Positions 9,298 through 12,976 of a stretch of 64,000 nt of DNA are shown one piece after another. Both the position numbers and the translations under genes were made by a program. Below the pieces are notes generated by a model, which was given only the letters and a program-made list of their open reading frames with translations, ran no database searches and had not been told where the DNA came from. The DNA comes from an uncultured bacterium (GTDB lineage: Bacteria; SAR324; NAC60-12). How positions within the stretch are numbered: the stretch's first letter is position 1; each line of letters begins with the position of its first letter. The DNA lies in assembly GCA_965662845.1 (NCBI GenBank), contig CBFIJD010000004.1, positions 33,281 to 97,280 on the forward strand. The letters run 5' to 3'.

Positions 9298-10050
9298 TTG
9301 CAGACAGACCATTTGGCGGGGCGCGTTGCGCTCGTGACGGGGGGCGCAGGCGGGATTGGTTCGGCGATTTGTCAGGCGATCGCCGAGGCTGGCGGAAGAG
9401 TCATCGTCACCTATCACCGCAGTGCCGAGCGAGCAGAAGCGCTGCTGCAGGGGCTCGCGGGCGAGGGACACTCTGGCATGCAGGTGCGCGTGGACGACAG
9501 CCCAATGCTGACGCAGGTAGCCAGCGAAGTCTGGGGCACCTACGGCAAACTCGATCTGCTGGTAAACTGTGCCGGTACCACGCGCTTCGTTCCACATGAC
9601 GACCTCAACGCCTTAGACAACGACTTGATCGACGAGATCTTTCGCGTGAACTGGCGCGGCGCCTTCGCGACCATACGCGCGTTTCAGCCTCTGTTAGCGG
9701 AGAGTGACGACGCGCTGATCGTCAACATCTCGTCCATTGCCGCCGTCTCCGGCATGGGGAGCAACGTCGCTTATTGCGCGTCGAAGGCGGCGCTCGACTC
9801 CATGACACGCTCCCTCGCAAGGGCGCTGGCTCCCAACATTCGCGTGGTTTCGTTGTCTCCCGGCGTTGTCGAGACGGAGTTTATTCAGGGGCTCGACCCG
9901 GCTTGGCTCGAGACGCAACGTGCGCGCACGCCGCTCCAGCGCTTTGTCTCACCCGACGAGATCGGCGCGGCGGTCGTGCAGCTCTACACCACGCTCCGGT
10001 CGCTCACCGGCTGCATCCTCCCCATGGACAGCGGACGCCCGCTGGGGTGA
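9298..10050 (+). CDS. SDR family NAD(P)-dependent oxidoreductase
   Basis: TGGAGGIG, NCAG, catalytic S...YCASK; TTG start after GAGGT. Confidence 0.9.
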   Translation: MQTDHLAGRVALVTGGAGGIGSAICQAIAEAGGRVIVTYHRSAERAEALLQGLAGEGHSGMQVRVDDSPMLTQVASEVWGTYGKLDLLVNCAGTTRFVPHDDLNALDNDLIDEIFRVNWRGAFATIRAFQPLLAESDDALIVNISSIAAVSGMGSNVAYCASKAALDSMTRSLARALAPNIRVVSLSPGVVETEFIQGLDPAWLETQRARTPLQRFVSPDEIGAAVVQLYTTLRSLTGCILPMDSGRPLG

Positions 10051-10118
10051 ACCTTCCTCAAGCCCGATAGGTGCGACAATGGCGCGGCAGCAGCCGCACC
10101 GTCTCGCCCACGCTCCAG
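9901..10118. repeat. 218-bp direct repeat, copy 1 (3' end of SDR gene + 3' end of convergent ABC ATPase gene)
   Basis: Identical to 11749-11966 except G9981 versus A11829 (offset 1848). Confidence 0.97.
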
Positions 10119-10244
10119 CTTTTCCTGAGCAGACATCTGCGTATTGGTTTTTCAATCCTTCAACGAGCTTGCGCGTTGTTATCGTCGATGGCTTCTCTCG
10201 GTTCGACTGTGCGGGTGTCCTGAAGGTCATTTTTAAACCAACTA

Positions 10245-10385
10245 TCAATTTTGCCCTGGCTTTGAAATCTGCGTCGCCCGAACCCCTATTTTCTTATGAC
10301 CGAGGTAAGGTGCTACGATTTTTTCTATAAAAATCTGCTCTGTCTTACCCTCAACGATGGCGACAACCTCAATGTAATTCCTCAT
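10245..10385 (-). pseudogene. Truncated DUF4276/TOPRIM-like partner of the AAA ATPase (46 aa)
   Basis: ATG overlaps the ATPase 3' end. Translates MRNYIEVVAIVEGKTEQIFIEKIVAPYLGHKKIGVRATQISKPGQN*, with the TOPRIM-type VEGxTE motif, then stops. Confidence 0.7.
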
Positions 10386-11505
10386 AGACCGGGCCTCCAT
10401 CAATCACATTTTTAGTCCAGAGCTCACCAACAGAATAGTCTTCCAACCAAGTTGTGAAATCCTCTTCCTTCAGTCGCCGGAAGGTGGATGCGCCACTTTC
10501 ACGATTCACAACGATAACATCCTCAATGGCAAATTGATCAATAAGCGCAGGAGACTGGGTAGCCACAATAACCTGAGTTCGTTTGGCTGCAGCCTGAATC
10601 AGCTCCGCCAGCACCACAATCGCGGCTGGATGCAGTCCCAATTCCGGCTCATCAATCACGATCGTAGAAGGCGGACGCGGTTGCAGTAGCGCAGTGGCAA
10701 GGCAGATAAAGCGAATGGAACCGTCTGAAAGGTGATAGGACTGCATCGGAAAATCCGATCCTTTCTGGTTCCAGCTCAGACGGACTTTTTCGGCCTCACC
10801 CAGTTTTTGTACATCCAGCCGGAAATCATCAAAGAAGGGTATGACCAGACGGACAGCATCAACAATACGTTGATAGTAATCAGGTTCAGAATCTTTAAGC
10901 TCCAATAAAAAAGGAGCAATATTCGCAGCATCTCCTCTCAACTTGTGGAAATCTTCCACGATCTCTGAACGCCGCATGGGCGCATTGGCACTGGTGTCAT
11001 GAAAGTGGTAAACCATCCAGTTGGAGATGGATTCATAGACAAAATGTCCAACGCCATGCCATTGGCCATCCATCGATTTTTCGTTGCGCTCATCATACAA
11101 ACGGCTTTCATCTGATGCGCTCCCATAAGAGCGCCAATTTGTAGATACACATTTACGCTGCTCACTGATCAAAAATTTCTCATCCGCTGTTGGTGTCAGC
11201 TCAAACTTATACGAATTGGTCCCTGTTGCATGATCACTGAGCGAAGCAAATTCAAATTCCATATTGATGCTCGGCGTCACTTTTGGACCATTAAAAAGGA
11301 AGTTGTCAGCACCGCCACGTTCGAGAATAAACTTGCTGAAATTTTTCTCTGTCATCGCCATCAGCATGCGGAAAATCTGTACAAAGTTACTCTTTCCCGC
11401 ACCGTTCGCACCGATAATCACATTCAGATCGCCCAGCTTGAATTCGTTGAGGTCTTTGATAGATTTAAACCCCCTTATGGTCAATTTATCTAAAGACCCT
11501 TTCAT
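10369..11505 (-). CDS. ABC-type AAA ATPase (AAA_21/COG4637-like, SMC/OLD-related), putative defence-system ATPase
   Basis: IRGFKSI, Walker A GANGAGKS, signature LSDG, Walker B/D-loop IVIDEPELGLHP, ATQSP; GGAGG RBS at 11513-11517. Confidence 0.85.
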   Translation of the reverse strand: MKGSLDKLTIRGFKSIKDLNEFKLGDLNVIIGANGAGKSNFVQIFRMLMAMTEKNFSKFILERGGADNFLFNGPKVTPSINMEFEFASLSDHATGTNSYKFELTPTADEKFLISEQRKCVSTNWRSYGSASDESRLYDERNEKSMDGQWHGVGHFVYESISNWMVYHFHDTSANAPMRRSEIVEDFHKLRGDAANIAPFLLELKDSEPDYYQRIVDAVRLVIPFFDDFRLDVQKLGEAEKVRLSWNQKGSDFPMQSYHLSDGSIRFICLATALLQPRPPSTIVIDEPELGLHPAAIVVLAELIQAAAKRTQVIVATQSPALIDQFAIEDVIVVNRESGASTFRRLKEEDFTTWLEDYSVGELWTKNVIDGGPVYEELH

Positions 11506-11524
11506 GGAATAACCTCCGAATTAT

Positions 11525-11552
11525 TTCTGTGTATTCCGTGTATTCTGTGGTT
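11525..11552. repeat. 9-bp-period short tandem repeat TTC(T/C)GTGTA x2 + TTCTGTGGTT
   Basis: Read directly: ttctgtgta ttccgtgta ttctgtggtt; 20 bp upstream of the ATPase start. Confidence 0.8.
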
Positions 11553-11599
11553 CATAAAATTCGAGTGTCTTCCAGGTTTGTGCTGACTCGAGCCGTCCT

Positions 11600-11766
11600 T
11601 GGGGCACGTCCAAATCCGCTGTCCTGCGATTTTGTCTCGTTGTCCACGCAAAGTCGATGGAGGCGTCATCCGAGGCGTAGAGCACCACCCGGTGCTGGCG
11701 GTAGATGCGCAAGCAGAGTCGCTGGTTGCCCGTGAGTACGTTGATGGTGCTTGGCTCGAGACGCAA
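11600..11766 (-). pseudogene. Decayed fragment, possibly of a prophage/ICE-type class II glutamine amidotransferase-like gene
   Basis: Translates RLEPSTINVLTGNQRLCLRIYRQHRVVLYASDDASIDFA, then an apparent frameshift. Family assignment is from memory of similar proteins only. Confidence 0.4.
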
Positions 11767-11966
11767 CGTGCGCGCACGCCGCTCCAGCGCTTTGTCTCAC
11801 CCGACGAGATCGGCGCGGCGGTCGTGCAACTCTACACCACGCTCCGGTCGCTCACCGGCTGCATCCTCCCCATGGACAGCGGACGCCCGCTGGGGTGAAC
11901 CTTCCTCAAGCCCGATAGGTGCGACAATGGCGCGGCAGCAGCCGCACCGTCTCGCCCACGCTCCAG
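11749..11966. repeat. 218-bp direct repeat, copy 2
   Basis: Matches 9901-10118 with one mismatch; contains the functional 3' end of the ABC ATPase gene. Confidence 0.97.
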
Positions 11967-12976
11967 TCGCTGCGAGAAGAGACGCTGACCCGCAAGCGCA
12001 GAGCGTTGTCAAAGCGCACAGAGAGGACCTTGCGCTCACCGTGAAAAGAGACGTCCTCCAGCACCGCTACGCGTCTCGCGACCTCGGGAGCGCGGACGAC
12101 TGCGATGTCCTCTAGCCGGCACATCCACAGCTGGTCGCGCATTTGAGGCTCGTGCGCGAAAGCCTCGACGCCTAACGCTTCCCAGACTTGCAGCAGCGGC
12201 AGCAGGTTCGCCTCTCCCACAAACGAGGCGACCCACGCGGTCGCAGGCTCATGATAAACCGCCTCCGGTGTGCCCGCCTGCACCACTTTTCCCGCCGACA
12301 AGAGCACCATCCGATCCGCGAAAGTGTAGGCTTCGGCTTGGTCGTGTGTCACCAAAATCGCGCTGACCTGGGCTTCGCGTAGAATGTCGCGGATGTCCTG
12401 CCGAATCTGCACCCGCAGCCGATAGTCTAAGCTGTTGAAGGGCTCATCTAAGAGCAGCAAACGTGGCGCAGGGGCCAGAGCGCGGGCAATCGCGATGCGC
12501 TGCTGCTCTCCGCCAGAGAGTTGATGCGGCATTTTCTCTTCGGTGCCAGAGAGCTCGACCAGCTCCAGCATCTCCGCCACACGGCGTCTCTGCTCCGCGC
12601 GAGGCCCTCGCAGACCGAAGCTCACATTTTCATACACGTTCAGGTGCGGAAACAGCGCGATGTCTTGGAACACCATGCCCACGCGGCGTTTCTCTGGAGG
12701 AACCATGCGCTGCGGTGTGCTCATCACCTCTCCGCCAAGCGTGATAGTCCCTTGCTGCGGCTGATCCAGCCCAGCGATCAGGTTCAACAGCGTGGACTTC
12801 CCACAACCTGACGGCCCCAAAATCGAGAGCAACTCCTGCGGCTGAAGCTCTAAGCTGACGCCATCCACAGGCCGCACATTGGGGTAATGGCGCACCAAGT
12901 TGTGGCACTGCAGCAAAAACTCAGAGTCGGTCGGTACGTTCGATTTTCGGCGAAAGAAAGGCATAGCGAGGGGCAT
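11906..12976 (-). CDS. ABC transporter ATP-binding protein (FbpC/PotA-like, Fe3+/polyamine class)
   Basis: GPSGCGKS, VFQDIALFPHL, LSGGEQQR, LLLDEPF, VTHDQ. Start is ATG 12976 or 12964. Confidence 0.88.
   Translation of the reverse strand: MPLAMPFFRRKSNVPTDSEFLLQCHNLVRHYPNVRPVDGVSLELQPQELLSILGPSGCGKSTLLNLIAGLDQPQQGTITLGGEVMSTPQRMVPPEKRRVGMVFQDIALFPHLNVYENVSFGLRGPRAEQRRRVAEMLELVELSGTEEKMPHQLSGGEQQRIAIARALAPAPRLLLLDEPFNSLDYRLRVQIRQDIRDILREAQVSAILVTHDQAEAYTFADRMVLLSAGKVVQAGTPEAVYHEPATAWVASFVGEANLLPLLQVWEALGVEAFAHEPQMRDQLWMCRLEDIAVVRAPEVARRVAVLEDVSFHGERKVLSVRFDNALRLRVSVSSRSDWSVGETVRLLPRHCRTYRA

Follow-up and report, generated by a model that had tools for sequence, protein, structure and literature searches.

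A putative prophage-arm relic with an orphan HEC-01A gene between two copies of a 218-bp host sequence in an uncultured SAR324 bacterium

Insertion with long target duplication was reportedly described by Nobusato et al. in 2000 (Gene 259:99), a report that we cite through Furuta, and the mechanism of such insertion has been open since that year. In this study we describe a locus of this kind in an uncultured marine SAR324 bacterium, within a window of 64,000 nt (the whole stretch of DNA analysed, part of contig C4 of a 3.2-Mb genome of 129 contigs that is 95% complete). Two copies of a 218-bp host sequence there enclose an insert of 1630 bp in which the only whole gene encodes the ATPase HEC-01A. 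We give a probability of roughly 0.55 to the reading that this is a young insertion with long target duplication, that its cargo is an old, collapsed prophage relic and that two illegitimate joins put it in place.

In the available parts of Furuta, Abe and Kobayashi (2010, PMC2853133) the class is characterised by an insert of less than 20 kb, a duplication of more than 30 bp and the lack of mobile-element genes. Its repeats range from 30 to 423 bp, often lie across start or stop codons and come mostly from competent species, and a double-strand break is suggested as the origin of the duplications. The term has been applied to other DNAs too, according to the part available of a further paper (PMC3457768). 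By structure the present locus is a member of this class and its layout is already known: the 218-bp duplication is unique and present in two copies, the insert measures 1630 bp, neither integrase nor transposase was found in it or beside it, and the repeat is not a tRNA gene. A duplication of 218 bp is not unusual where repeats reach 423 bp. Further likenesses are the low GC content of the foreign insert, a unique host duplication over stop codons that leaves the genes whole, and a competence gene in the host. The locus differs from the class, as far as the same parts describe it, in that its cargo has no restriction-modification (RM) system and now no nuclease, and in that the donor can be followed past a junction, where there is microhomology. 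The RM subset of the class has both R and M genes, whereas here HEC-01A alone is whole. The idea that the cargo itself made the break does not fit, since the cargo now encodes no nuclease, unless HEC-01B was lost after arrival.

Other described systems resemble the locus in part. Prophage e14 of Escherichia coli duplicates the 3' end of icd, leaving the icdC remnant, so that DNA of prophage origin is bordered by a long second copy of a 3' gene end and could be lost by recombination (PMC13626634, PMC6379469, in the parts available). However e14 integrates through a site-specific recombination of its own, with its ends preserved, whereas the present insert ends inside the phage genes GATase and sbcD, with no recombinase at either end and no att end, and a site-specifically integrated prophage or island of the e14 type was rejected. 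Homology-facilitated illegitimate recombination, as the accessible parts of PMC2884548 and PMC5361080 present it, is likewise a way in which competent bacteria fix foreign DNA by joining it illegitimately where a short match exists. There, though, host DNA next to the homologous anchor is replaced, whereas the present locus has a duplication of host DNA and two joins between foreign and host sequence. Our search found no paper that brought 'long target duplication' together with 'microhomology', most subscription papers being outside it. The traceable donor, one microhomologous and one blunt join, and a cargo with no nuclease left argue for a host route, and comparison of repeat ends with the continuation of the donor would be a cheap test on other cases.

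The duplication and the genes it spares

The sequences at 9901..10118 and 11749..11966, recognised by sequence comparison and assigned to neither strand, are direct repeats identical at 217 of 218 nt, and the bases immediately outside them differ on both sides. As an earlier note on this DNA had stated, the sole mismatch is G9981/A11829, and it is synonymous in the frame of a short-chain dehydrogenase/reductase (SDR) gene, where it falls in the third position of codon 228 (CAG/CAA). In the 3.2-Mb genome there is no third copy of the repeat and no second copy of the insert, and among the four direct-repeat families of the window this is the only near-perfect long one. GC content is 47% in the insert and about 60% in the flanks.

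The repeat consists of the last 150 bp of the SDR gene, a 7-bp gap and the last 61 bp of a convergent gene for an ATP-binding cassette (ABC) transporter ATPase. As it spans the ends of both genes, the left copy, which contains the 3' 150 bp of the SDR gene in place, completes that gene and the right copy completes the ABC ATPase. Both host proteins can be aligned with relatives up to their last residues, and their preservation, also claimed before, is upheld. The intact SDR gene (9298..10050, plus strand; Pfam adh_short_C2, E 3e-46; aligned to residue 250) is the last of a catabolic cluster. The intact ABC ATPase (11906..12967, minus strand; Pfam ABC_tran) is 68-70% like its ortholog in eight of eight same-genus genomes and is the last gene of a conserved run, putatively cimA-nadD-ubiE-mrp-recN-ABC. 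An insertion with a duplication over both stop codons survives because neither gene is harmed.

Domain scans found no recombinase in the 1630-bp insert and there is no tRNA gene on contig C4, which bears out the earlier view that the insert lacks a recombinase and that its site is not a tRNA att site. The insert ORFs (open reading frames) scanned gave no match to a transposase, and no inverted repeat of at least 25 nt pairs the two insert ends. Insertion sequences and composite transposons are characterised by a transposase, terminal inverted repeats and a short target duplication, and the insert has none of these. A hairpin at the left repeat boundary was no better than those of shuffled sequences (z -0.23), the other junctions behaved likewise, and promoter and terminator scans gave chance-level results. 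Judged from its sequence, the insert is a scar rather than an active mobile element or a working defence system, and the locus probably does nothing important today.

An insert made from one kind of prophage arm

Donor sequence could be assigned to 1626 of the 1630 nt of the insert, as six collinear scraps on one strand with five deletions, in the order GATase, GGCT, HEC-01A, the 5' part of HEC-01B, pglZ and sbcD twice. Where at least three unrelated pieces had been proposed before, the alignments point instead to a single kind of prophage arm. It is suggested that the insert derives from the variable defence arm of one prophage family, about 12-19 kb in length and reduced by five deletions, the ancestor being a reconstruction; it would document plainly how prophage defence DNA is pared down until one gene is left.

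All the scraps lie on the minus strand. Scrap 1 (11603..11748) is a GATase pseudogene fragment, with a 1-nt deletion, that leads into the 5' half of a mini-repeat; the donor protein has Pfam domain GATase_6, and over 11603-11763 the window is contiguous with viral locus L158 at 143 of 162 nt (88%). Scrap 2 (11563..11602) holds the 3' half of the mini-repeat and the start of the prophage GGCT gene (37 of 40 nt to L083; donor Pfam GGACT). After the mini-repeat in GATase, placed as in L158, the window continues in GGCT with the latter half of that mini-repeat. Together, positions 11563-11748 match an amidoligase-GATase-GGCT operon on viral contigs, although a protein search with the GATase scrap found nothing among longer proteins. 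The mini-repeat is a dispersed element of about 75 bp which inserts in frame in prophage GATase and GGCT genes and occurs elsewhere in the elements; ten copies were seen among the element loci scanned, and its sites include window 11563-11636, L158:2013, L159:10265 and 10504, L083:3278, L096 and L144.

A spacer at 11506..11562, aligned to the stretch between pglX and HEC-01A in locus L021 and containing a GGAGG ribosome-binding site, precedes HEC-01A (10369..11505), which is followed by a 45-codon 5' remnant of HEC-01B (10250..10385). The spacer includes a short 9-nt tandem motif (11520-11555) common to L021 and L058, and motifs of this kind occur in the cassette genes of anaerobes. About 550 bp of HEC-01B are deleted, and the remnant is joined, with 0-1 nt shared, to codon 2 of the BREX (bacteriophage exclusion) gene pglZ, of which scrap 4 (10218..10249) retains codons 2-12 (29 of 32 nt to the pglZ of L021; donor PADLOC PglZ). 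The next joint, between pglZ and sbcD, shares about 6 nt. Scrap 5 (10130..10221) is an sbcD pseudogene fragment (84 of 93 nt to L199 and L201; donor Pfam Metallophos and SbcD_C) with a 1-nt insertion and, by codon tally, five non-synonymous changes. Scrap 6 (10119..10129) comprises 11 nt of prophage sbcD, gene nt 788-798, an exact single match in each of the three closest sbcD loci (L199-L201) that lies 280 nt further on in the gene than scrap 5 and has a chance probability of about 2e-4. A first assignment of the last 10 nt of scrap 6 to an 'IQEKLE'-like stretch of sbcD was wrong. As for BREX itself, which requires brxC, pglX and pglZ, the insert has only 32 nt of pglZ. A host origin for pieces of the insert was considered and rejected, since 88 genomes from the phylum yielded nothing beyond two matches of 21-24 nt, which were judged to be chance. 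In plasmid and phage collections the insert matched only distant AAA-DUF4276 pairs or sequences alike by chance.

HEC-01A is a 378-residue ABC-type ATPase (AAA_21; PADLOC HEC-01A, E 3e-141) with intact Walker A, signature and Walker B motifs; its stop codon is lost and is read through by three residues. It is 89-92% like its closest relatives; no HEC-01A turned up in a search of viral contigs. In the closest genomic locus, L021 (89% at the protein level), the order is pglX, HEC-01A, HEC-01B, pglZ, and window positions 10249-11553, including the spacer behind pglX, are 84% identical to it. The remnant of HEC-01B (DUF4276, TOPRIM-like) has a weak Pfam DUF4276 match, its L021 donor protein being identified as HEC-01B with E 1e-71. 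The gene pair is otherwise known from Payne et al. (bioRxiv 10.1101/2024.01.29.577857), and in the parts available of that source the likeness extends to an intact HEC-01A followed by the start of HEC-01B and, in the closest donor, to embedding within another defence system; here HEC-01B is cut after 45 codons, so that HEC-01A has no full-length HEC-01B, its nuclease partner, downstream, and the surrounding donor system is BREX rather than Hma. No protection was detected for the HEC-01 prototype in the assays reported there, and even a whole pair is unproven.

The donor family can be recognised from IMG/VR and metagenome contigs (L104, L174-L186, L194-L201) and from the record G090. Its prophages encode a large serine recombinase and have, between amidoligase-GATase-GGCT and sbcD-sbcC, a variable defence slot whose cargo includes two BREX subtypes, a type III RM system with SIR2-HerA, and a C5 methylase with an SNF2 helicase and HATPase. 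Among 98 GATase loci GGCT is present in 88, amidoligase in 80 and a pglX match within 10 kb in 11. Two of three sbcD loci from viral contigs share their contig with GATase loci and lie about 12 kb downstream on the same strand. In L186 and L199 the order and strand of GATase-GGCT-defence-sbcD agree with the insert, while L104 reads GATase-GGCT-brxA-brxB-brxC-pglX with a PglX 75% like that of L021. Over about 15 kb G090 also follows the order of the insert, its cargo being type III RM and SIR2-HerA, and it has tail, terminase and large serine recombinase genes, the recombinase lying at the far end. The family recalls the P2/P4-type prophage defence hotspots (PMC9122126, in the part available) in its slot of fixed flanks and changing defence cargo, but the phage family and the flanks (GGCT, sbcD-sbcC) are different and the window keeps only scraps of the flanks. 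No description of amidoligase-GGCT prophages as defence hotspots was found in the literature covered, which left out most subscription papers; the GGCT-sbcD slot is a possible source of new defence genes.

Age of the duplication and the route of entry

The scraps and the repeat differ greatly in the changes they have accumulated. In the GATase and sbcD scraps, each codon being compared with whichever of two donors is nearer, 13 of 189 nt are substituted (6.9%); 11 of these changes are non-synonymous and 2 synonymous, which looks neutral in the codon tally. Each of the two scraps also has a frameshift, and six residues of the GATase scrap occur in none of 74 distinct family sequences. HEC-01A is quite unlike them (Fisher p 1e-6): among 173 columns conserved in 95% of 119 relatives it has one change, which is also the median of the relatives, and its dN/dS to L021 is 0.06. 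A slight recent relaxation can be seen in the lost stop codon, in P256S and Y119C, and in a G73S allele in one sequencing run (X2). Since HEC-01A is conserved and the HEC-01B remnant little changed next to pseudogenised neighbours, the codon patterns suggest that HEC-01 was kept while its neighbours decayed and that HEC-01B was lost late. At the rate of the scraps about 15 differences would be expected in the repeat and one is observed (P of one or fewer 5e-6), while other two-copy pairs in the genome have decayed to 88-98% identity, and the duplication is thus probably much younger than the relic. The recent integration proposed in the earlier note holds in this sense for the duplication (1 difference in 218, with eight other pairs at 88-98%), but not for the cargo, which appears old and of one origin, with about 7% substitutions in its scraps.

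The same contrast bears on the possibility that a whole prophage or large fragment entered long ago with a longer duplication, as e14 does, and collapsed in place while gene conversion kept the two copies alike. The interior of the insert was clearly shaped by deletion, the insert has diverged alleles in the population, and elsewhere the genome holds a larger BREX piece that is 89-93% like the slot of the same prophage family. A collapse would, in addition, find a precedent in the 3' end of icd duplicated by e14 (PMC13626634, PMC6379469, in part), and the microhomology found at the right junction would suit the end of a deletion as well as that of an insertion. Yet conversion would have to erase the roughly 15 expected differences right up to both junctions, in a genome where repeats are not kept alike, as a 267-bp pair at 88% identity indicates. 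An easily excised cassette would have to persist through the whole decay; the insert retains neither an att end nor a recombinase nor any piece of a structural gene, and the site coincides with a lineage-specific break in synteny. We regard this course of events as improbable.

At the right junction the first 15 nt of the right repeat (11749..11763, minus strand) are similar to the stretch of donor GATase that lies immediately upstream of scrap 1, with 11 of 15 nt matching in 59 of 74 family sequences and 12 of 15 in L159, which has the mini-repeat and a rare codon in common with the window. Host positions that match as well have frequencies of 2.4e-4 (11/15) and 3e-5 (12/15), and the preceding 15 nt match at only 5-6 of 15 in 70 of 74 family sequences. 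This match favours an illegitimate join, whether by way of a circle or of break repair.

A young insertion of an old relic can be envisaged as follows. The anatomy, donor order, decay contrast and microhomology are seen directly in the alignments; where the relic aged, the order of events and the enzymes we infer from them. Drawing on three donor records, the source would have been a prophage right arm of the order amidoligase-GATase-GGCT-variable defence slot-sbcD-sbcC, in a member carrying BREX with an embedded HEC-01 pair. The arm may then have decayed at an earlier location: its phage and BREX genes would have become pseudogenes and five deletions, several at short repeats, would have brought about 12-19 kb down to 1.63 kb, with HEC-01 remaining under selection until a late loss of HEC-01B left an orphan ATPase, now drifting. 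In this step the sequence is directly seen and the sequence of events conditional. A piece of the relic would next have entered the cell, or was already inside it, and two illegitimate joins could have been made during break repair or a replication template switch. One would be a blunt join at 10118/10119; the other would re-enter the host 218 bp earlier, at the imperfect 12/15-nt match, so that the stretch between the two host join points was duplicated. Repeats of 218 bp are long enough for RecA, and a cassette flanked by them can be lost or amplified; the present one could in future share either fate through RecA.

The circle route would begin with a circle composed of the 218-bp host piece and the relic, formed for instance from fragments of a kin strain and followed by a single RecA crossover (insertion-duplication). 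It yields exactly the observed product. The synonymous mismatch would be expected if one copy were the working allele of another strain, the flanks are polymorphic in the population as seen in run contigs, and the genome has ComEC. However the circle itself needs the same two illegitimate joins, which adds a step, and plain mutation also gives a synonymous change about one time in four. No circle, such as the excised one of 1848 bp named in the earlier note, was seen in the run contigs, which by their nature do not show one. On product sequence the circle with a single crossover and break repair appear inseparable; we consider the circle unlikely, though a little less so than collapse in place.

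Four sequencing runs (X1-X4) were compared as Logan assembled contigs; X1 and X2 are from one sample, which may be the source sample. In X1 the left flank has depth 30 and the right flank depth 28; the repeat forms a 218-nt contig by itself (depth 58), and the insert contig (depth 16) carries 30 nt of the repeat on either side. Both junctions, 10118/10119 and 11748/11749, which the earlier note had proposed to check, are thus present in X1 contigs and exist beyond the analysed assembly, albeit in what may be its own source sample. X2 yields an insert contig of depth 20, between flanks at 26-27, that breaks off at 11723 with 25 nt to go before the right junction; it differs from the window at two sites, both non-synonymous. 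In X3 a 162-nt insert piece has four differences and ends at the same base. X4 gave only small flank pieces at depth 2-3, at which the absence of insert cover is uninformative. It was observed that the X2 and X3 contigs, from different samples, both end exactly at 11723/11724, 25 nt inside the insert, where a variant or longer allele may branch off.

These contigs also bear on an assembly artefact, in which the chromosome was merged with a separate repeat-plus-insert circle or the locus is a chimera. The contig graph of X1, a repeat-insert-repeat loop, is alike for filled chromosomes, empty ones and circles, and does not tell a chromosomal insertion from a free circle. The depth of the insert is below that of the flanks (16 against 28-30 in X1, 20 against 26-27 in X2), no more than a hint of an empty single-copy site, and X2 has no contig over the last 25 nt before the right repeat. 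A rough GC-bias fit allows about 70% carriers in X1, an unproven figure, as depth is not read as a share of cells. Against an artefact, another assembler produced both junctions in X1, the repeat there has twice the depth of the flanks (58 against 28-30), insert pieces occur also in sample X3 and the insert has no replication gene. The right junction moreover lies on donor-host microhomology and both genes are spared, as would not be the case in a chimera. An artefact is very improbable.

Several observations weigh against the young insertion of an old relic. The divergence of the scraps was measured to the nearest records found, perhaps not the true donor, and the insert already has alleles (2 differences in X2 and 4 in 162 nt in X3), so that 'young' is relative. 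No single record holds all donor genes, and the ancestor had to be pieced together from records of three kinds; of 41 related loci, only 2 have pglX or pglZ next to HEC-01A. The 12/15 match is one observation, to a relative and the best of 74 sequences, and the left junction (10118/10119) has no detectable microhomology to the donor. None of the eight same-genus genomes has SDR-ABC adjacency and hence an empty site, a scan of metagenome contigs for the repeat gave no match and thus no empty allele there, and the rest of the genome, which is 95% complete, yielded no copy from which the relic could have come.

Genome context and other inserts

Comparison with related genomes, also proposed in the earlier note, placed the site at a break in synteny without supplying an empty site. 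In eight of eight same-genus genomes (L066-L073) the ABC ATPase is followed not by the SDR but by a second, convergent ABC ATPase, part of a putative molybdate-transport-like operon; the best match to it in the present genome is only 41%. The break spans window 10050-11906 in comparison with L066-L073, and GC content is about 56% in the present genome against about 45% in those regions. No match to Ku was found in the genome, and its one PF07508 serine recombinase sits on another contig.

A genome search for other repeat-flanked inserts, as the earlier note had advised, was productive. Eight more two-copy direct repeats, selected from two genome scans, are 36-267 bp long and 88-98% identical and surround single genes or islands of 0.7-16 kb (C2:14338-15575; C12:14500-16060; C36:21467-23922; C47:3030-3994; C28:14060-30475; C44:2453-11845; C49:14237-16736; C3:127564-130444). 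Several overlap a gene start or stop. One insert carries a Uma2 gene, and others presumably, by labels given from sequence, a type II RM-like pair, a Fic-like gene and catabolic blocks. A flanking repeat was found at 7 of 75 low-GC segments, the 1630-bp insert included. The eight pairs look like older insertions of the same kind. We tentatively raise the possibility that insertion with long target duplication is a general pathway of repair or capture in the host, independent of any enzyme from the cargo: foreign DNA would be attached at a break, and the return to the host strand would take place behind that break, at an imperfect match of 10-15 nt. The present locus would then be a case in which the donor, legible beyond the junction, displays such a match, and the nine repeat pairs of this genome would be repeated products of the pathway, of graded age.

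The larger BREX piece, of a different subtype, lies at C28:35670-42701 (L203) and on C111 (L204), and contains brxA-like, brxB and brxC genes, a Bro-N gene and a 5' part of pglX. It shares 89-93% identity with the slot of the donor prophage family, begins 140 bp past a host stop codon and has its pglX cut by the contig end. The assembly branches at its start to a convergent AMP-binding-enzyme gene, which suggests filled and empty alleles or another duplicated end. Sequences at C78:2418-4059, C77:1802-2771 and C34:7474-8072 and on C90 are 73-80% like genes in or beside the same prophage arm. A complete but distant AAA_21 and DUF4276 pair, 22% like HEC-01A, is present at C83:2448-4192 (L208).

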